Assembly (NCBI GenBank): GCA_030390025.1
Contig: JASTWF010000033.1
Coordinates: forward strand, 6,078,001 to 6,142,000
Source: Squalus acanthias
Lineage: Eukaryota
Length of the DNA: 64,000 bases
Reading direction: 5' to 3'
The notes under the pieces are model-generated. The model was not told where the DNA came from. It ran no database searches and saw only the letters and a list, made by a program, of their open reading frames with translations. This document shows positions 7,970 through 25,500 of the stretch, piece after piece. The position numbers and the translations under genes are program-made. Numbering within the stretch: the stretch's first letter is position 1; every line of letters begins with the position of its first letter.

Positions 7970-9121
7970 ACTGACAATCCAAACAGAATTACCTGGGCAC
8001 TGACTCCTCACAAACAAAATTATTACCCAGGCAATGACCCTTTCAATAACAGAATCATTACCTGGACACTAATCTCTTCTCCATACAATCATTACATGTG
8101 GACTGAACCCCTCCCAAACAAAATCATTACCTGGGCACTGAACCCTCCCAAACTCAAATATTACCTGCGCACTGACTGCTTCCAGACAGAATCATTACAT
8201 GGGCAGTGACCACCTCGCAAAACAGAATCATTAACTGTGCACTGACACCGCCCAAACAGAACAATTAGCTCGACACTGACCCCGACCAAACAGGATCATT
8301 ACCTGGGCACTGACTCATCCCAAACAGAAACATTACCTGGGCACTGACTCATCCCAAACAGAAATATTCCCTGTGAACTGACTCATCCCAAAGAGAATCA
8401 TTACCTCGACACTGACCCCTACCAAACAGAATCATTGCCAGGACACGGACTCATCCCAAACAGAATCATAACCTGGGCACTGACTCCTACCAAACAGAAT
8501 CATTAGCTGGGCACTGACTCATACCAAACAGAATCATTACCTGGGCACTGACTCATCCCAAACAAAATCATTACCTGGCACTGACCCCTACCAAACAGAA
8601 TCATTACCTGGGCACTGACTCATCCCAAACAAAATCATTACTTGGCATTAACTCATCCCAAACAGAATCATTACCTGGCATTAACTCATCCCAAACAGAA
8701 TCATTACCTGGGCACTGACTCATCCCAAACAGAATCAAAACCTGGCATTAACTCATCCCAAACAGAATCATTACCTGGCACTGACCCTCCCAAACAGAAA
8801 CATTAATTCGACACTGACCCCTACAAAACAGAATCATTGCCTGGACACTGACCTCTCCAAACAGAATCATTACCTGGGCACCGACTCATCCCAAACAGAA
8901 ACATTACCTGGACACTGACTCCTCCCAAACAGAATCATTACCTGGACACTGATCCCTCCCAAACAGAATCATTACCTGGAAACTGACGCCTCACAAACTG
9001 AATCATTACCTGGGCACTGACCCCTCCCAGACAGAAACATTACCTGGGCACTGACCACTCACAAACTGAATCATTACCTGGGCACTGAAACCTCCCAAAC
9101 AGAAACATTACCTGGGCATTG
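7970..9121. repeat. 34-bp minisatellite, about 34 copies, consensus CTGACTCATCCCAAACAGAATCATTACCTGGGCA
   Basis: Period measured directly (ACTGACTCAT at 8309 and 8343). Units are more degenerate at the left edge. Confidence 0.95.
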
Positions 9122-10988
9122 ACATAGAAATATAGAAGATAGGAGCAGGAATAGGACATTCGGCCCCTCGAGCCAGCTCCGCCATTTAATCTGATCATAG
9201 CTGACCATTCAAATTCAGTACCCTGTCCCTGCTTTCTCCCCATATCACTTTATCCCTTTAGCCTTAAGAAATATATCTAACTCCTTCGTGAATATATTTA
9301 ATGCGTTGGCCTCTACTGCCTTCTGTGGTAGAGAATTCCACAGTTTCACCACTCTCTGGTTGAAGAACTTCCTCCTCATCTCAGTCTTAAATGGCTTACC
9401 CCTTATCCTGAGACTGTGACCCCTGGTTCTGGACTACCCCACTATCGGGAACATCCTTCCTGCATCTCGTCTGTCTAGTCCTGTTAGAATTGTATTAATT
9501 TCAATGAGATCCTCTCTCATTCTTCTAAAGTCTAGCGAATACAAGCCAATTCGTCCCAATCTCTATTCATACGTCATTCCTGCCAACCCAGGTATCAGTC
9601 TGGTGAATCTTCGCTGCACTCTCTCCATGGCAAGAACATCCTTCCTCAGATAAGACGAACAAAACTGCACACAATAGTCAAGGTGTGGTCTCACCAAGGC
9701 CCTGTACAACTGCAGCAAGACATCATTGCTCCTGTACTCGAATCCTTTCGCTATGAAGGCCAACATACAATTTGCCTTCTTAACCGCCTACTGCACCTGC
9801 ATGCTTACCTTCAAAAACTGGTGCACAAGGACTCCCAGGTCTCGTTGCACTTCCCCTTTTCCCAATCTATTGTCGTTCAGATAATAATCTCCCTTTCTGT
9901 TTTTGCTAGCAGAGTGGATAACCTCACATTTATCCACATTATACTGCATCTGCCATGCATCTGCCCAATCACCCAACATACCAAATCATACTGGAGTTTA
10001 TCTGCATCCTCCTCACAAAACACACGCCCTCCCAGCTTTGTGTCGTCTGCAAACTTGGAGATATTACATCTAGTTCCCTCGTCTAGATCATTAATATCTA
10101 TTATGAATAACTGGGATCCTAGCACCGATCCCTGTTGTACCCCACTAGTCACTGCCTGCCACTCGGAAAAAGACCCATTTATTCCAACTTTTTGCTTCCC
10201 GTCTGCCAAACTGTTCTCTATCCAAGTCAGTACCTTGCCCCCAATCCCATGTGCCTTAACTCTACACGCCAATCTCTTATGTGGGGCCTTATCGAAAGCC
10301 TTCTGAAAGTCCAAATACACCACATCCACTGGATCTCCCTTATCTATTCTATCAGTTACATCCTCAAAAAATTCCAGTAGATTAGTCAAGCACGATTTAC
10401 ATTTTGTAAATCCATGTTGACTTTGTCCAATCCTGTCACTGTTTTCCAAGTGCTCTGCTATTACATCTTTTATAACGGACTCGAGCATTTTCCCCACTAC
10501 CGATGTCAGGCTTACCGGTCTATAATTTCCCGTTTTCACTCTCCCACCTTTTTTGAACAGTGGGGTAACATTAACTACTCTCTAATCCGTGGGAACTTTT
10601 CCAGGGTTTTTCGAATTTTGGAAGATGTCCAGCAATGCATCTACTATTTCTAGGGCCACTTCCTTAAGTACCTTAGGATGTAGATTATCAGGCTCTGGGG
10701 ATTTAACGGCCTAAAATTCCGTCAATTTCCCTAACACCATTTCCCTACAAATACTGATTTCATTCAGTTCCACCCTCTCATTAGACCCTATGTTCCCCGA
10801 CATCTCTGGGTGGTTATTTGTGCTCTCCTTTGTGAAGACAGAGCCAAAGTATGTATTTCATTGGTCAGCCATTTCTTTGTTCCCCATTATAAATTCCCCA
10901 GGTTCTGACAGCAAGGGACATACGCTTCACGTCACCAATCTATTTCTCTTCACAGAATGATAAAAGTTCTTATAGTCAGTTTTTATGT
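9122..10988 (-). mobile_element. 5'-truncated CR1 LINE with frameshifted ORF2 reverse transcriptase
   Basis: ORF fragments 9877-10539 (NYRPVSLTSVVGKMLE, YLDFQKAFDK, KFADDTKL), 9788-9979 and 9563-9766 (LYRALVRPHLDYC). 3' tail ACATAGAAATATAGAA at 9122. Confidence 0.95.
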
Positions 10989-16900: not shown

Positions 16901-18041
16901 GTAAATTAACAATTAATTGTAACTTTATTCACTGGTGCAGAGGAAACCATTTGTAAATTAACAATTAACTGTAACTTTATTCCCCGGTGTAGAGTATACC
17001 ATATGTAAATTGACAATTAACAGTAACTTTTTTGCCCGGTGTAGTGGACACTATGTTTTAATTAACACTTAACTGTAACTTTATTCCGCGGTGTCGAGGA
17101 TACTATGTTTAAATTATCACTTAAATGTAACTTTATTCCGCGGTGCAGAGGATACCATGTGTAAATTAACAATTTACTGTAACTTTATTCCCGGTGTAGT
17201 GTATACTATGTTTAAATTAACAATTAACTGTAACTTGTTTCCCTGGTGCAGAGGATACCATGTGTAAATTAACAATTATCTGTAACTTCATTCCCTGGTG
17301 CATTGGATACCATGTGTAAATTAACAATTAACTGTAACTCTAATCCCTGGTGTAGAGGACACCAGGTGTAAATTAACAATTAACTGTAACTTTATTCCTC
17401 GGTGTAGTGGATACAATGTGTAATATAACAATTATCTTTAATTTTATTTCCTGTTGCAGAGGAGACCATGTGTAAATTAACAATTAAGTGTAACTTTACT
17501 CCCAGGTGTAGAGGATACCATGTGCAAATTAACAATTTACTGTAACTTTATTCCTGGTGTAGAGGATACCATGTGTAAATTAACAATTAACTGTAACTTT
17601 ATTCACTGCTGTTGAGGATAGCATGTGTAAAAGAACAATTAACTGTAACTTGATTAACTGCTGTAGGGGATACCATGTGTAAATTAACAATTAACTGTAA
17701 CTTTATTCACTGGTGCAGAGGATAGCATGTGTAAATGAACAATTAACTGTAACTTGATTAACTGCTGTAGAGGATACCATGTGTAAATTAACAATTAACT
17801 GTAACTTTAATCCGCGGTGTAGAGGACACCATGTGTAAATTAACAACTTACTGTAACTTTATTCCCCGGTGGAGTGGATACAATGTTTAAATTAACAATT
17901 AACTGTAACTTTTTCACCGGTGTAGAGGATACCATGTGTAAATTAACAATTAACTGTAATTTTTTCGCTGCTGTAGTGGATACCATGTGTAAATTAACAA
18001 TTAACTGTAACTTTATTCCGCGGTGTAGAGGATACCATGTG
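10985..18041. repeat. 52-bp satellite array, left part
   Basis: Consensus ATGTGTAAATTAACAATTAACTGTAACTTTATTCCCCGGTGTAGAGGATACC. Period 52 (GTAAATT at 11821 and 11873), with some 51-bp units. Confidence 0.98.
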
Positions 18042-18235
18042 TGTGGTAACACAATACAGCTTCCTGTGACTTGAACTTTATTACATCACTTCCTGTGATT
18101 AGTCCAGGATAAATACTGGGCTGATCAGTCGGATCCTGGAGAGGCATAGAGTAAGACCTCTTTTGTATGTAGCACCTTTTTAGTTGATTAAAGCTTACTT
18201 TAAGTTCACCACGCGTAAGGCTCATTCTTACGACA
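18042..18235 (+). repeat. Gypsy 5' LTR
   Basis: TGTGGTAAC..CTTACGACA. Differs from the 3' LTR at one base (GAGTAAG versus GAGCAAG). ATTAAA at 18187-18192. Confidence 0.98.
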
Positions 18236-18236
18236 A

Positions 18237-18247
18237 TTTAATCAACT
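18237..18247 (+). promoter_or_regulatory. Non-tRNA primer-binding site, candidate self-priming site
   Basis: TTTAATCAACT, 1 nt after the LTR, is the exact reverse complement of AGTTGATTAAA at 18182-18192. No TGG-type tRNA PBS is present. Confidence 0.7.
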
Positions 18248-18313
18248 TTGAAAAACTTCGCACTCAAACTTTTTGGACGAACTTGGAACTAAGGATCCAG
18301 GGAATCACCCATC

Positions 18314-19399
18314 ATGGAAAACATCCTTAAACCATCGCGTCTTGACTTGGACCCAAACACCCCAGCAGCCGGTAAGGTGTGGAAACACTGGTATCGCACG
18401 TTTGACAATTTTCTCGAATATTGCAAGGCTGATGATGACTCAAAATTGCGGATACTCATCAACTGTGTCACCCCGAATGTATTTCAGTATGTCGAGGAAT
18501 GGGGCAGTTACGAGGAGGCAATTCGGACGCTTAAAAGACTATATACTAAGACACCGAATGAGGTCTATGCCAGACATCTACTAGCTACAGCCCAACAAGG
18601 GCCGGAGGAATCCATTGATAAATTCCTCCAAGAGCTTCGCAGACTTAGTATGGACTGTAACTTTCAGGCGGCCTCAGCTGAGCTGTACCGTGAAGAAATG
18701 ATCCGTGATGCTTTCATCTGCGGGCTTGCCTCCCCATTTATACGCCAGCGTCTACTGGAAAGTAAGACACTTGAGCTTCAGAGAGCTTATGACATGGCTT
18801 GCTCTCTAGATCTGGCAAAAAGAAATGCAGACCTTTATACAGTGCCCAGACCTCGGTCTGCTGCCTTAACTACAGTCAGGCAATTTAGGAGGCCACAGGT
18901 GAACTCTATTAGGGAGGACTTTATCCCTGACGATCAATCTGATGACTTCACTGATGAAGAGGATGATGACCCCACTGTGGCAGCCTCTTGGCAATCTAAG
19001 AAATGCTTCTTTTGTGGTGATGAGTTTCACCCTCGGAAATTCTGCCCTGCTCGCAATGCGTTTTGCAGTCATTGCAACAAAAAGGGTCATTTTGCAAAGG
19101 TTTGCCTATCAAGAGCCTCTACGAGGGCTTATCAAGCTAAGTCCTACCGAACTGCCCCGGTAAGGGCCTATCAAGATGTTCCGGCTAAAATCTATCGTGC
19201 TTCCTCTCGGGTTTTCTCTCGAAGAAACACACCTAGAGTTTCAGCCACTCTTTGTGCAACGACACCAATTACAGCTGCTTGTCCTCAGAACCTATTCCAT
19301 GCAGCTACAAAAGCATCAATTAATGGACATACTTTAGATGCCTTAATTGACTCAGGTAGCACTGATAGTTTCATTAGGGAACAGATTGTTGCAGAGTAA
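18314..19399 (+). CDS. gag: Gag with twin zinc knuckles plus N-terminal half of aspartic protease (ends at an in-frame TAA)
   Basis: 361 aa. Contains CFFCGDEFHPRKFC-PA-x3-CSHCNKKGHFAKVC and the protease active site ALIDSGS just before the stop. Confidence 0.92.
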   Translation: MENILKPSRLDLDPNTPAAGKVWKHWYRTFDNFLEYCKADDDSKLRILINCVTPNVFQYVEEWGSYEEAIRTLKRLYTKTPNEVYARHLLATAQQGPEESIDKFLQELRRLSMDCNFQAASAELYREEMIRDAFICGLASPFIRQRLLESKTLELQRAYDMACSLDLAKRNADLYTVPRPRSAALTTVRQFRRPQVNSIREDFIPDDQSDDFTDEEDDDPTVAASWQSKKCFFCGDEFHPRKFCPARNAFCSHCNKKGHFAKVCLSRASTRAYQAKSYRTAPVRAYQDVPAKIYRASSRVFSRRNTPRVSATLCATTPITAACPQNLFHAATKASINGHTLDALIDSGSTDSFIREQIVAE

Positions 19400-22264
19400 A
19401 AGCTACATGTTTTCCCATCGGACCAGGCAATTGCGATGGCTCAGTCATCACTTAATACCAGAATTTCTGGCTTTTGTATGGTTGAAATAACACTTAATGG
19501 TCACAGGTATCCCTCCACCCGGCTTTCGGTGCTCAAGGACTTATGTAGTGATCTTATCTTAGGGCTAGATTTTCAAAAGCAGCATAAGAAGCTCACCATT
19601 GAGTTCGGCGGATCCAAACCTGAACTCACTATTTCTAATATACGACCTCGATTACCGTTCTGTGCATTGTCAGCAGCTTCACTGGATGAACCCTCACTGT
19701 TTACCAGTATCCCTCCTCGATGCAAACCGATTATAACAAAGTCACGACGTTTCAGTCAGGAAGACCAGTCTTTTATTGCGGCTGAGATTTCTCGTCTTTT
19801 AGCAGAGGATATCATCGAGCCTTGTTCGTCGCCATGGCGCGCCCAGGTCGTTATTGTTAAGAACCCTCTACAACCTCACAAGAAACGGCTGTGCATTGAC
19901 TATTCACAGACCATCAATCAATATACGGACTTGGACGCATACCCATTGCCGCGCATCGATGATATGGTTAATAAACTGGCTGAGTACACGGTGTTCTCAA
20001 CATATGATCTGAAAAGTGCCTATCATCAGGTACCCTTGAAGGTCTCAGACAAGCAGTATACGGCCTTTGAAGCCAATGGACGGCTGTATCAATTTCGTCG
20101 CCTCCCCTTTGGGGTCACTAATGGAGTGGCTGTCTTCCAGCGAGCAATGGATGACCTGGTCAAACAGGAAGACTTAAAGGATACGTTTCCTTATCTGGAC
20201 AATATTACTGTCGCAGGTCGCAATCAGCGGGAACATGACGCCAATCTCCAACGATTTTGGGATGCACTCCAGCACCGTAATTTGACATTAAATGCGGCTA
20301 AATCCATTGAGTCACAACCAACCATCAACATCCTTGGCTATTGTGTGGGCAATGGCATCATTAAACCTGACCCTGAAAGGCTTCGCCCACTCCAAGAGCT
20401 CCCGCCACCTAAGAATACGGCCTCCTTGCGCCGGGCCCTCAGCCTGTTTGCATACTATGCTAAATGGATTCCTAACTTCTCGGACCGAATCCAACCTCTA
20501 CTGAAAGCCAGCACATTCCCACTAGACACAGCGGCTGTTGCAGCCTTTAACCTCCTGAAAAAACAGTTGGAGAAAGCGGCTCTTCACTCCATCGATGAGA
20601 GTCTTCCTTTTGTTGTTGAGTGTGATGCCTCGGAGGTGGCGATCTCGGCCACTCTGAATCAGGAAGGTCGTCCGGTGGCATTTTTGTCCAGGACTTTTCA
20701 AGGGGCTGAGCTACATTATCCTCCAGTCGAGAAAGAAGCTACAGCCATCATAGAGGCAGTACGGAAGTGGACTCATCTCCTAGCTCGCCAGCACTTTACC
20801 TTAATCACGGACCAGCGATCGGTCGCCTTCATGCTCGATAATCGAAAACGGACCAAAATTAAAAATAATAAAATCCAGCTTTGGCGGCTGGAATTGGCCT
20901 CTTTTGGTTACACCATCCACTATCGACCTGGCAAGGAGAATGTGGCTCCGGATACCCTCACACGAGCATTCTGCTCCGCCATGGCACCCTCTACGCTCGT
21001 AGACATCCATGATGGGTTGTGTCATCCGGGCGTTACTCGCATGCTACACTTCGTGCGGTCCCGAAATCTCCCATTCTCTACCGGGGATGTAAAGAAGATG
21101 TGCTCGGACTGCAGAGTCTGTGCGGAATTGAAACCTCAGTTTTTCCGCCCCTCGGGTGGTATACTCATACATGCGACCCAGCCAATGCAACGGCTTAGCA
21201 TCGATTTTAAGGGGCCGTTGCCCTCTTCAACTCGCAACACTTATCTATTGACCATGGTCGATGAGTATTCCCGTTTTCCATTTGCCTTTCCCTGCCCCAA
21301 TATGCTGACGACCACGGTTATCAGCTGCCTTGAGCAGGTATTTGCTTTCTGTGGCATGGCATCCTATGTTCATTCGGATCGGGGCCCTTCTTTTATGTCA
21401 GGAGAACTCAAGGCCTATCTCTCGGAACGGGGTATTGCTGCCAGCAGAACGACGCCTTATCATCCGGTCGGGAATGGGCAAGTCGAGCGTTTTAACGCTA
21501 TCATCTGGAATGCGGTACGTCTGGCTTTGAGATCTCGGGGCCTACCCAACCAGCAATGGGAAGCAGTACTTCCAGACGCATTACACTCCACACGGTCCCT
21601 CCTTTCGACCGCCACAAATACGACGCCTCATGAACGGTTCTTCCGATTTCAGCGTCGCTCATCCTATGGGATATCTCTCCCGTCATGGCTGACTGCACCG
21701 GGACCAGTGCTACTCCGAAGATATGTTCGGGCGTCTAAGAATGACCCCCTGGTAGATGAGGTTGAGCTCACTGACGTCAACCCTACCTACGCCTATATTC
21801 GGTATCCTGATGGTCGGGAATCTACCGTGTCCTTGCGGGATCTGGCTCCCTGCCCGCCGAAACATAGAGGGACACCAGGGGATGATATTGTACCAGGCAC
21901 ATCTCTGGGCTCGCCAGGTGCCTCTCATCACGATCTGGATCTGACGCCGGCTGGTACCTCACTCCAGCGTGCCGACCTGGGGCAGACTGACTATGAGCCC
22001 GTCGGGGCTCGCACGCGCAGCCACGATCCACCCTGTACCATACACTCGGAAGCGGATCTGCCACAGCCCTGCCCGACACCCGTTCGGGCACCAGTACACA
22101 GTCAGGATCGTCCTGACCCCTCACAGAGCGGGCTGGATCACTCGGACTCTGGTCCACGGCCCGCGGCGGGTAAACGGGCTAGGGGCCCTCTACCGCTACG
22201 AGAACCCAAACGGGTGCGGCTCTCCCTCGTCCAGCGGCTACGAAATGGAGGGAGAATGTGGTAA
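19400..22264 (+). CDS. pol: Pol (rest of protease, RT, RNase H, integrase), same frame as gag
   Basis: RLCIDY, YDLKSAYHQ, LPFG and YLDNI (RT); ECDAS and EKEA (RNase H); H..H..C..C, SIDFKGP, HSDRG and GNGQVERFN (integrase). Open to 22264. Confidence 0.95.
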   Translation, partial: KLHVFPSDQAIAMAQSSLNTRISGFCMVEITLNGHRYPSTRLSVLKDLCSDLILGLDFQKQHKKLTIEFGGSKPELTISNIRPRLPFCALSAASLDEPSLFTSIPPRCKPIITKSRRFSQEDQSFIAAEISRLLAEDIIEPCSSPWRAQVVIVKNPLQPHKKRLCIDYSQTINQYTDLDAYPLPRIDDMVNKLAEYTVFSTYDLKSAYHQVPLKVSDKQYTAFEANGRLYQFRRLPFGVTNGVAVFQRAMDDLVKQEDLKDTFPYLDNITVAGRNQREHDANLQRFWDALQHRNLTLNAAKSIESQPTINILGYCVGNGIIKPDPERLRPLQELPPPKNTASLRRALSLFAYYAKWIPNFSDRIQPLLKASTFPLDTAAVAAFNLLKKQLEKAALHSIDESLPFVVECDASEVAISATLNQEGRPVAFLSRTFQGAELHYPPVEKEATAIIEAVRKWTHLLARQHFTLITDQRSVAFMLDNRKRTKIKNNKIQLWRLELASFGYTIHYRPGKENVAPDTLTRAFCSAMAPSTLVDIHDGLCHPGVTRMLHFVRSRNLPFSTGDVKKMCSDCRVCAELKPQFFRPSGGILIHATQPMQRLSIDFKGPLPSSTRNTYLLTMVDEYSRFPFAFPCPNMLTTTVISCLEQVFAFCGMASYVHSDRGPSFMSGELKAYLSERGIAASRTTPYHPVGNGQVERFNAIIWNAVRLALRSRGLPNQQWEAVLPDALHSTRSLLSTATNTTPHERFFRFQRRSSYGISLPSWLTAPGPVLLRRYVRASKNDPLVDEVELTDVNPTYAYIRYPDGRESTVSLRDLAPCPPKHRGTPGDDIVPGTSLGSPGASHHDLDLTPAGTSLQRADLGQTDYEPVGARTRSHDPPCTIHSEADLPQPCPTPVRAPVHSQDRPDPSQSGLDHSDSGPRPAAGKRARGPLPLREPKRVRLSLVQRLRNGGRMW

Positions 22265-22315
22265 CACAATACAGCTTCCTGTGACTTGAACTTCATCCCG
22301 ACCTCCTAATCTTTT

Positions 22316-22328
22316 GGGGGGGGGAGAA
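22316..22328 (+). promoter_or_regulatory. Gypsy polypurine tract
   Basis: GGGGGGGGGAGAA directly before the 3' LTR TG. Confidence 0.92.
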
Positions 22329-22522
22329 TGTGGTAACACAATACAGCTTCCTGTGACTTGAACTTTATTACATCACTTCCTGTGATTAGTCCAGGATAAA
22401 TACTGGGCTGATCAGTCGGATCCTGGAGAGGCATAGAGCAAGACCTCTTTTGTATGTAGCACCTTTTTAGTTGATTAAAGCTTACTTTAAGTTCACCACG
22501 CGTAAGGCTCATTCTTACGACA
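22329..22522 (+). repeat. Gypsy 3' LTR
   Basis: 194 bp, 193/194 identical to 18042-18235. Confidence 0.98.
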
Positions 22523-25500
22523 ATGTGTAAATTAACAATTAACTGTAACTTGTTTCCCTGGTGCACAGGATACCATGTGTAAATTAACAATTAACTGTAA
22601 CATTATTCACTGGTGCAGAGGATACCAAGTGTAAATTAACAATTAACCGCAACTTTATTAACAGCTGTAGAGAATACCATGTGTAAATTAACAATTAACT
22701 GTAACTTTATTAACTGTTGTAGAGGATACCATGTGTAAATTATCAATTAACTGTAACTTTATCCCACGGTGTAGAGCAAACAATGTTTAAATTAACAATT
22801 AACTGTAACTTTATTCCCCGGTACAGAGGACACCATGTGTAAATTAACATTTAACTGTAACTTTTTTCCCGGTGTAGAGGATATCATGTGTAAATTAACA
22901 ATTAACTGCAACTTTTTCACTGCTGTAGAGGATACCATGTGTAAATTAACAATTAACTGTCACTTTATTCCCTGTTGTAGAGCATACCATGTTTAAATTA
23001 ACAATTAACTGTAAATTTATTCCCCGGTGTAGTGGATACAATGTTTAAATTAACAATTTACTGTAACTGTATTACCCGGGGAGGAGGATAAAACGTGTAA
23101 ATTTACAATTAACTGTGTCTTTATTCCCTGGTGTAGAGGATACCATGTGTAAATTATCAATTAACTGTAACTTTATTCCACGGTGTAGAGCAAACAATGT
23201 TTAAATTAACAATTAACTTCAATTTTAGTCCCCGGTGCAGCGGATACAATGTTTATATTAACAATTTCCTGTAACATTATTACCTGGTGTAGTGGATTCC
23301 ATGTGTAAATTAACAATTAACTGCAAATTTATTCCCCTGTGTAGAGGATACCATGTGTAAGTTATCAATTAACTGCAAATTTATTCCCCGGTGCAGAGGA
23401 TACAATGTTTAAATTAACAATTTCCTGTAACTTTATTCCCTGGTGTAATGGATTCCATGTGTAAATTTACTATTAACTGCAAATTTATTACCGGGGGAAG
23501 AGGATACCACGTGTAAATTAACAATTTACTGCAAATTTAATCTCCGGTGTACAGGATACCAAGTGTAAATTAACAATTAACTCCAACTTTTTTAACTGCT
23601 GTAGAGAATATCTTGTGTAAATTAACAATTAACTGTAAATTATTCCCCGATGTAGAGGATACCATGTGTAAATTAAACATTAACTGTAAATTTATTCCCT
23701 GGTGTGGAGGATACCATGTTTAAATTAATAATTAACTGTAAATTTATTCACTTGTGTAAAGGAAACCATGTGTAAATTAACAATTAACTGTAACATTATT
23801 CCCCGGTGCAGCGGATACCAAGTGTAAATTAACAATTAACTGAAACTTTATTAACTGCTGTAGAGAATATCATGTGTAAATTAACGATTAACTGTAACTT
23901 TATTAACTGGTGTAAAGGATACCATGTGTAAATTAACAATTAACTGCAACTTTTTCACTGCTGTAGAGGATACCATGTGTAAAATAACAATTAACTGTAA
24001 CATTATTCCCCGGTGCAGCGGATACCATGCGTAAATTAACAAATTACTGTAACTTTATTCACAGGTGCAGAGGATACCATGTGTAAATTAACAATTAAGT
24101 GTAACTTTATTCCCCGCTGTAGAGGATAAAATGTTTAAATTAACAATTAACTGTTACTATATTTCCCGGTGCAGAGGATACCATATGTAAATTGTCAATT
24201 AACTGGATCTTTATCACCCGGAGTAGTGGATACTATGTGTATATTAACAATTAACTGTAAATTATTCCCCGATGTAGAGGATACCATGTGTAAATTAACA
24301 ATTAACTGTAAATTATTCCCCGGTGTAGAGGATACCATGCGTAAATAAACTATTAACTGTAACTGTATTCCTCGCTGTCGGGGATACCATGTGTAAATTA
24401 ACAATTAACTGTAACTTTATTCCCCGGTACAGAGGACACCATGTGTAAATTAACATTTAACTGTAACTTTTTTCCCGGTGCAGAGGATTCCATGTGTAAA
24501 TTAACAATTAACTGCAACTTTTTCACTGCTTTAGAGGATACCATGTGTAAATTAACAATTAACTGTCACTTTATTCCCTGTTGTAGAGCATACCATGTTT
24601 AAATTAACAATTAACTGTAAATTTAATCCCCGGTGTAGTGGATACAATGTTTAAATTAACAATCTACTGTAACTGTATTACCCGGGGAGGAGGATAAAAC
24701 GTGTAAATTTACAATTAACTGTGTCTTTATTCCCTGGTGTAGAGGATACCATGTGTAAATTAATAATTAACTGTAAATTATTCCCCGGTGTAGAGGATAC
24801 CATGTGTAAATTAAACATTAACTGTAATTGTATTCCTCGCTGTCGGGGATAACATGTGTAAATTAACAATTAACTGTAAATTTATTCCCTGGTGTGGAGG
24901 ATACCATGTTTAAATTAACAATTAACTGAAACTTTATTAACTGGTGCAGTGGAGACCAAGTGCAAATTAACAATTAACTGAAACTTTATTAACTGCTGTA
25001 GAGAATACCATGTGTAAATTAACAATTAACTGTAACTTTATTAACTGGTGTAAATGATACCATGTGTAAATTAACAATTAACTATAACTTTATTCCATGG
25101 TGCAGAGAATACCATGTGTAAATTAACAATTAGCTGTAACTTTATTCCCGGTGTAGAGGATACCATGTGTAAATTAACAATTAACTGCAACTTTTTCACT
25201 GCTGTAGAGGATACCATGTGTAAATTAACAATTAACTATAACTTTATTCCATGGTGCAGAGGATACCATGTGTAAATTAACAATTAGCTGTAACTTTATT
25301 CCCGGTGTAGAGGATACCATGTGTAAATTAACAATTAACTGCAACTTTTTCACTGCTGTAGAGGATACCATGTGTAAATTAACAATTAACTATATCTTTA
25401 TTCCATGGTGCAGAGGATACCATGTGTAAATTAACAATTAACTGTAACTTTATTCACCAGTGTAGAGGATACCAAGCGTAAATTAAACATTAACTGTAAC

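Follow-up and report, generated by a model that had tools for sequence, protein, structure and literature searches.

The Gypsy-type LTR retrotransposon studied here lies in a window of 64,000 nucleotides of genomic DNA from Squalus acanthias, and it raises the question of how reverse transcription is primed in an element whose 5' LTR is followed by no tRNA-type TGG. Self-priming has been described for the Tf1/sushi chromoviruses and is predicted for Tcn1 and for one plant copia lineage, TAR, and with TAR the trait has already been proposed outside the chromoviruses (accessible text of PMC6317226). Our literature search, outside of which lay Repbase, GyDB and most subscription papers, returned no report of self-priming in an animal non-chromoviral Gypsy element. 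Repbase reports are said to label some animal Gypsy families as self-primed, and a clade-level claim may be on record there. Based on the sequence comparisons presented herein, we put forward that the element belongs to a lineage in which pairing between the LTR and the primer site is real and lineage-wide and which probably primes itself, though probably by a route other than the 5' primer of Tf1. The tests that are new here concern a 13-base duplex edge, an upstream cap-type footprint and a footprint at base 14 of the primer site.

The element spans 18042–22522, is inserted in a 52-bp satellite and shows the marks of Ty3/Gypsy, namely TG..CA LTRs, a target-site duplication, a polypurine tract and the order PR-RT-RH-IN (Pfam). 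Its features are as follows.

18037–18041, plus strand: left target-site duplication, ATGTG, identical to the 5 bases at 22523–22527
18042–18235, plus strand: 5' LTR, 194 bp, TG...CA, with one of its 194 positions different in the 3' LTR
18108–18115, plus strand: TATA-like box GATAAATA, lying in an inverted-repeat loop, with a putative promoter role
18120–18133, plus strand: cluster of mutations present in both LTRs, the putative end of minus-strand strong-stop DNA and putative transcription start (~18131)
18182–18192, plus strand: 5' copy of the LTR arm that pairs with the primer site, its 3' end the poly(A)-signal-like hexamer ATTAAA (18187–18192) followed by GCT
18214–18232, plus strand: predicted U5 hairpin beside the LTR end
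18237–18247, plus strand: primer-binding-site position, 1 base past the LTR, without TGG
18314–19399, plus strand: gag with two CCHC knuckles (19004–19105) and the start of the protease
19400–22264, plus strand: pol frame with reverse transcriptase (RT), RNase H and integrase (Pfam), without a Chromo or SH3_Tf2-1 match
22247–22293, plus strand: extra purine tract and 37-nt copy of the LTR start, ~71–72 bp before the true 3' LTR
22316–22328, plus strand: polypurine tract, ending GAA just before the TG of the LTR
22329–22522, plus strand: 3' LTR
22469–22479, plus strand: 3' copy of the arm, identical in its letters to 18182–18192, the preferred primer candidate as judged from the footprints
22523–22527, plus strand: right target-site duplication, ATGTG
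10985–62254, no strand assigned: 52-bp satellite array that hosts the element, ~986 copies

The copy in the window has a stop codon at 19397–19399 and an altered RT catalytic motif; many other copies have a single frame of ~1,320 codons. The twin-knuckle Gag that the earlier note described is there, and its statement that a chromodomain is lacking agrees with the absence of any Pfam match to Chromo or SH3_Tf2-1 at E up to 0.1. Rfam gave no match within 17900–22700. We refer to the window's subfamily as C1, to its sister subfamily as C2 and to a sister family as A, all of them in the host. By sequence identity the family is young: 40 scored matches of the window family are 99–100% identical, and its 150 scored Gag matches are all 100% identical. 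In the host genome of 3.7 Gb, the LTR of C2 gave 802 matches to a 26-letter pattern, and 5-bp duplications flank 14 of the 14 C2 pairs checked. The extra purine tract with its 37-nt LTR-start copy occurs in 37 of 60 C1 stretches, is absent from the C2 stretches reaching the 3' LTR (32/33) and may be a second plus-strand start.

Some observations stand beside this description. A 34-bp array occupies 7988–9123 of the window. The TATA-like GATAAATA is the loop of a 10–12 bp inverted repeat (18096–18127), in the stem of which the subfamilies differ by G-U versus Watson-Crick pairs and a G to A change at LTR 79 (9 of 50 copies) restores a pair; in sister families TATAAATA replaces GATAAATA at the matching context. 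Copies lie 4–10 kb apart at L002/L009 (G000:C2890) and at places on C5, C10 and C14, and a purine tract precedes the LTR of L009, which points to a tandem array with a common LTR, as described for Tf1/Tf2. One C2 copy (L242–L243, G000:C1:64218712) has a normal 5-bp duplication and a flank similar, over ~12 bases, to the LTR end and primer site of the copy itself.

Within the window copy, AGTTGATTAAA (18182–18192) is the exact reverse complement of TTTAATCAACT (18237–18247) across a loop of 44 nt, the primer site beginning one base past the final CA of the LTR. On re-check, the following readings of the earlier note hold: the 11-nt complement with its loop, the missing TGG after that CA, and the ATTAAA inside the match, with which the arm ends. 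The identical pairing occurs in 20 of the 20 close copies examined. Folding the 79-nt stretch gives z = -2.7, with 3 of 200 shuffles equally good, and the local fold varies with the window from z -2.1 to -3.2 and is 0.07 in the widest, so that the predicted fold of this stretch is by itself modest; the predicted pair probabilities of the cis fold are 0.85–0.99 for 10 of the 11 pairs. A T run directly upstream of the arm (18176–18181) can also pair with an A run at 18251–18255, past a 3-nt bulge, in both host subfamilies.

Comparison among relatives carries the case further. Relatives were gathered as 80 metagenome loci through a Gag alignment and 30 host loci of two sister families through a Gag relative; the 111 loci fell into 40 clusters, of which 5 were dropped for upstream DNA that was too short, leaving 35 families, and single linkage joined both host sister families in one cluster. 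A perfect duplex of at least 11 bases starting at LTR+2 is present in 25 of the 35 families when the first member is taken and in 27 when the best member is taken, while none of 1,400 dinucleotide shuffles of the related upstream regions, with the geometry fixed, reached 11 bases. The 27 perfectly paired families contain 24 distinct 11-mers. In the set of 32 families in which at least 9 bases pair, arm and primer site of the same family pair perfectly in 27 of 32 cases as against 12 of 992 cross-family combinations; both sides change and the pairing is kept, the kind of compensatory change that the earlier note had proposed to look for. Six further genome-contig loci were held out, of which one lacked upstream DNA and 4 of the remaining 5 gave 13–14 bases, one of the four being close to an earlier family, and three host elements with a TGG site (Mag-type) had self-duplexes of only 3–5 bases. 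With G-U pairs allowed, 30 of the 35 families have at least 12 of 13 bases paired, by 376 Watson-Crick pairs, 7 G-U pairs and 7 mismatches (first members only, and two of the 30 appear to be anchored differently). The pairing of LTR and primer site is real and lineage-wide.

The same comparison does not uphold 11 as the natural length of the duplex. Numbering positions from the 3' end of the arm, so that the proposed start A is position 11, we found pairing at position 12 in 29 of the 32 families (10.5 expected) and at position 13 in 28 (16.2 expected), with perfect runs in 27, 25, 24 and then 15 families, the first clear drop falling after base 13. The mode is 13 in the relatives, while the sister subfamily of the host genome pairs by 12 bases and C1 by 11. 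At the other edge, the base just inside the duplex pairs in none of the 32 families, AATAAA or ATTAAA closes the arm in 21, GCC or ACC follows the arm directly in 26, and the primer site begins with T in all 32. The conserved (G/A)CC and the next base that never pairs would fit a defined primer end. TGG follows a CA in 6 of the 35 upstream regions and in none at the duplex-defined LTR end; where a 3' LTR is present, the direct repeat stops at that CA or a few chance bases later (for example L021, L029, L034 and L089).

A change found in both LTRs of one copy arose before or during the reverse transcription of that copy, and such changes bear on where the first strand ends. The copies of C1 and A were chosen by Gag match, and those of C2 by an LTR pattern that covers the arm and is blind to changes in it; both LTRs were available for 50 of 60 full-length stretches of C1, 50 of 60 of A and 33 of 33 of C2. 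In C1, 10 of the 17 distinct both-LTR events fall within LTR 79–92 (18120–18133), a concentration matched by none of 10,000 random placements, the 14-nt width having been picked after seeing the data. At LTR 89, T has changed to G in 4 of 49 C1 copies, which between them carry either letter of a linked U3 site and so represent two backgrounds; across 84 5' LTRs the same position (18130) has G in 7 and C in 3, and the window copy carries the rare C in both LTRs. In family A, 6 of 53 copies, from two U3 backgrounds, have C changed to G at LTR 100, directly before an A that is 32 nt behind the TATAAATA box, and the remaining both-LTR changes of the family are nearly all transitions; by event count (3 of 18 in 2 nt, p 0.10) this is not significant, and the case for family A rests on recurrence. 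Inspection by eye of 7 copies of the metagenome family L033 shows variation in both LTRs as well, ~40 nt upstream of where the arm ends.

A cap copied at the end of strong-stop DNA would leave a G at -1, and the recurrent changes to G suggest cap copying of this kind. We infer from the footprints that transcription starts near 18131, ~50 nt upstream of the arm, and that first-strand synthesis likely continues across the 5' arm as far as this upstream cap. If strong-stop DNA does reach a cap 50–60 nt upstream, the 5' arm of the template is not cut off, and hence the primer would come from another copy of the arm. It should be noted that the C1 hot spot is merely 23 nt behind a non-canonical TATA-like box, is ~10 nt off the start that we had predicted beforehand, and overlaps a hairpin arm that could itself be mutagenic, and that one both-LTR deletion of 9 nt in C1 speaks against the upstream-cap reading in that it starts at LTR 138, the 5' edge of the arm. 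The accessible text of PMC4668388 says nothing on cap copying.

We now propose a mechanism. That the element primes itself in some form, the three variants considered here being taken together, is in our estimate highly probable, and we lean, by somewhat better than an even chance, towards a primer supplied by the 3' repeat of the RNA or by a second packaged RNA and not by the first bases of the template; which of these two is the source cannot be told from DNA alone. Specifically, an RNA that starts near 18131 would carry the arm within R, where it overlies the poly(A) signal. The primer site would be bound by another copy of the arm, which RNase H or a host nuclease would cut or trim at the AAA|GC edge to leave a paired 3' end. 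Minus-strand DNA would extend from this end via U5 and the template's own 5' arm to the cap, the copying of which would leave the G at -1, and would then jump to the 3' R by means of the 50 nt upstream of the arm. Plus-strand DNA would subsequently copy ~13 nt of the primer remnant and run off, giving rise to errors at base 14 of the primer site, and copying of the remnant would maintain the complementarity of arm and primer site. The strongly predicted cis fold would compete with the arm of the 3' end or of a second RNA; this fold of the 5' arm in new RNA would also mask the 5' poly(A) signal. In the most specific form of the proposal, which we offer only tentatively, a pan-animal Gypsy lineage would use as primer the 3' end of its genomic RNA after trimming. 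The part of the 3' R that spans the poly(A) signal would pair with the primer site, circularise the RNA, be trimmed to the duplex edge and be extended, and this 13-base stretch would be written anew into the primer site in each cycle.

Base 14 of the primer site is where such a run-off would be seen. Among 53 copies of family A, 5 have G and 2 have C at this base, both changes occurring on two backgrounds; in C2 it is the most variable site of the leader, T or G, in 15 of 47 copies, perhaps through one old event; and in L033, where no leader site varies more, it is T or G in 4 of 9 copies. Two further metagenome families, of 7 and 4 copies, are invariant there, and the signal in C1 is weak, with one change at base 14 and three at base 15 among 87 copies. 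A deletion in the family A copy L201 begins after base 10 of the primer site. The base-14 spot fits a primer remnant of ~13 nt that plus-strand DNA would copy before running off. The RT of Ty3 has ~13 bp between its two active sites and its plus strand copies 12 nt of primer, and neither in Ty1 nor in Ty3 does the primer site inherit the sequence of the primer (accessible text of PMC5371799). In C1, bases 12–13 have been converted to the complement of the arm in 0 of 87 copies, though copying of the remnant would allow this. Inheritance of the remnant into the primer site is the least secure step of the proposed mechanism.

The closest rival, which we regard as unlikely while still giving it real weight, is priming in cis by a long primer, in which transcription would again start at ~18131, RNase H would cut at 18192/18193 and the capped 5' piece of ~60 nt would itself be the primer. 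For this the cis fold is the predicted ground state, the chemistry of Tf1 suffices, and both the pairing upstream of 18182 and the (G/A)CC after the arm (26 of 32 families) are accounted for. Its strong-stop DNA would, however, stop at 18193, short of the cap, and yet the both-LTR cluster of C1 lies at 18120–18133 and no both-LTR mutation occurs in LTR 139–194 among 50 copies.

Next in order is the mechanism of Tf1 itself, proposed by the earlier note, in which transcription would start at 18182 and the first 11 nt of the RNA, folded back, would serve as primer. That the window's subfamily pairs by exactly 11 bases is in its favor, as is position 11, which is A in 22 of the 32 families and has the highest pyrimidine-purine count (13 of 32) of positions 10–19. 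Both positions 12 and 13 are paired in 28 of 32 families, however, and since they lie upstream of that A, bases upstream of the proposed start must be in the RNA and the match does not begin where transcription was thought to begin. The sister subfamily pairs by 12 bases. Positions 13–15 are unlikely as start sites in their turn, being mostly T with pyrimidine-purine counts of 5, 4 and 1 of 32. A TATA at the distance that would suit a start at 18182, 38–50 nt upstream of the arm end, occurs in 1 of 33 families against a null mean of 2.1, and among the 33 families there is no TATA enrichment at any distance except for 2 of 31 at 95–109 nt (two related families); three host families have in common an ATAAATAC motif 85–103 nt upstream of the arm end. 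Together with footprints that lie 50–60 nt upstream of the arm, these data count against a start at 18182 and against an 11-nt primer at the very 5' end, and we consider the Tf1 mechanism distinctly improbable here. What stands of the original self-priming claim is the tRNA-independent pairing with the LTR, changing on both sides, in a lineage that lacks a chromodomain. A separate reading of the T-rich stretch and AG before the arm as a splice acceptor was dropped because in 14 of 32 families the AG is preceded by A or G and because the bases there pair with the primer site.

A further alternative, to which we give slight credence, is that the duplex is purely regulatory, masking the 5' poly(A) signal or circularising the RNA, and that priming is in truth done by a host RNA, for instance a piece of a tRNA. 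In its favor, 21 of 32 families have AATAAA or ATTAAA at the 3' end of the arm, and a pairing partner present only at the 5' end would make polyadenylation specific to the 3' end. The scan of host tRNAs, in which no match to the primer site was longer than 2–3 nt, covered 7 distinct genes of only two types (Lys-TTT and Cys-GCA), and this leaves some room for a host primer; a CCA end, however, cannot base-pair there, the first letter of the primer site being T in all 32 families. A regulatory duplex does not explain why the duplex always begins at primer position LTR+2 or why its letters shift from family to family in step with the LTR with almost no G-U pairs, and a host primer would have to differ from one family to the next. 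That the complementarity arose by chance in AT-rich sequence, as an arm of 8 A/T in 11 positions and the modest local fold might have suggested, is refuted by the comparative data (27 of 35 families, 0 of 1,400 shuffles, 4 of 5 held-out loci).

As to where the element belongs, relatives in both Gag and pol come from cnidarians, molluscs, crustaceans, insects, nematodes, flatworms, echinoderms, tunicates and cartilaginous fish, and no chromodomain is listed among 120 pol relatives. The host copies L181–L188, which we take to be Mag-type from their knuckles and primer site, resemble the element in two CCHC-type knuckles of similar spacing and in lacking a chromodomain, and differ from it in a TGG primer site, a self-duplex of 3–5 nt and a separate RT branch. 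Hence the Mag-like character that had been suggested holds for the style of the knuckles and not for the RT, which scores 166 bits to a host Mag-type element and 179 to the RT of Ty3, these two scoring 201 with each other; RT and RNase H are 26–29% identical to those of host twin-knuckle TGG-site elements. In an RT tree of 50 rows, 39 rows of the self-pairing clade form one branch (100/99), apart from five host Mag-type rows and from the retroviral rows, and the RT does not group with these Mag-type elements of the host; of the 16 rows labelled 'other', 13 belong to the clade as well, and we use only the 39-row branch. By its domains the RT is not chromoviral, and by scores and tree it is not near Mag.

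Among known systems, Tf1/Tf2 of S. pombe, Tj1, Tosmo and Tf1/sushi are alike in having no tRNA primer site and post-LTR bases that pair with their own LTR, and Tf1 shares the single gag-pol frame (accessible text of PMC4600332 and PMC10085805). Tf1/sushi elements have a chromodomain and a pretzel fold (accessible text of PMC10085805). The present element differs in having no chromodomain match, two knuckles and a duplex mode of 13, in an arm that is apparently internal to R over the poly(A) signal and not the 5' end of the RNA, and in a predicted fold in which the three-duplex pretzel is not complete: the central duplex and the U5 hairpin are predicted, and the bases after the primer site form no duplex with LTR bases downstream of the arm. 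Self-priming of the copia TAR lineage (Houba, Osr-1) and of Tcn1 of moss was likewise predicted from complementarity of LTR and primer site, in another superfamily or in chromoviruses, and in plant hosts (accessible text of PMC6317226). Ty3 of S. cerevisiae, the best solved-structure match of the pol frame, has a bipartite primer site and uses the 3' end region, and it differs in its tRNAiMet primer and in a primer copy that is not inherited (accessible text of PMC5371799). The flatworm elements Saci-2/lennie share the single gag-pol frame; they have 4-bp target-site duplications and tRNA primers (accessible text of PMC12471100), in contrast to the 5-bp duplications of the self-pairing lineage (14 of 14 pairs), and membership of that group is ruled out by duplication length and primer type. 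ESM Atlas returned as top matches only unnamed arthropod-rich Gag clusters. Motif searches in the accessible supplements of PMC8556966 and PMC6238403 found no element sequences, and the main text of PMC2774666 has no passage on Cigr or the primer-binding site. In the host genome, the SH3_Tf2-1 matches are of an env-bearing retroviral type or lack RT and are not chromoviruses, and 16 Chromo matches have short frames; three scans of viral sequences returned no match. Those at L169–L177 are of retrovirus type with an env-like frame, two of them with a Gag-like frame on the opposite strand nearby. The same animal lineage also occurs in six bacterial MAG contigs (L189–L194, GTDB), most likely through host contamination.

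A large and active animal lineage that needs no tRNA would evade control exerted through tRNA supply and 3' tRNA fragments, and annotation tools that seek TGG would miss or mislabel its members. The footprints supply exact positions for testing. If the primer is the 3' end or a partner RNA, priming would be tied to polyadenylation and to circularisation of the RNA or formation of a dimer, and priming from the 3' end, if true, would be a third route to LTR reverse transcription, beside the tRNA and the 5' primer of Tf1.
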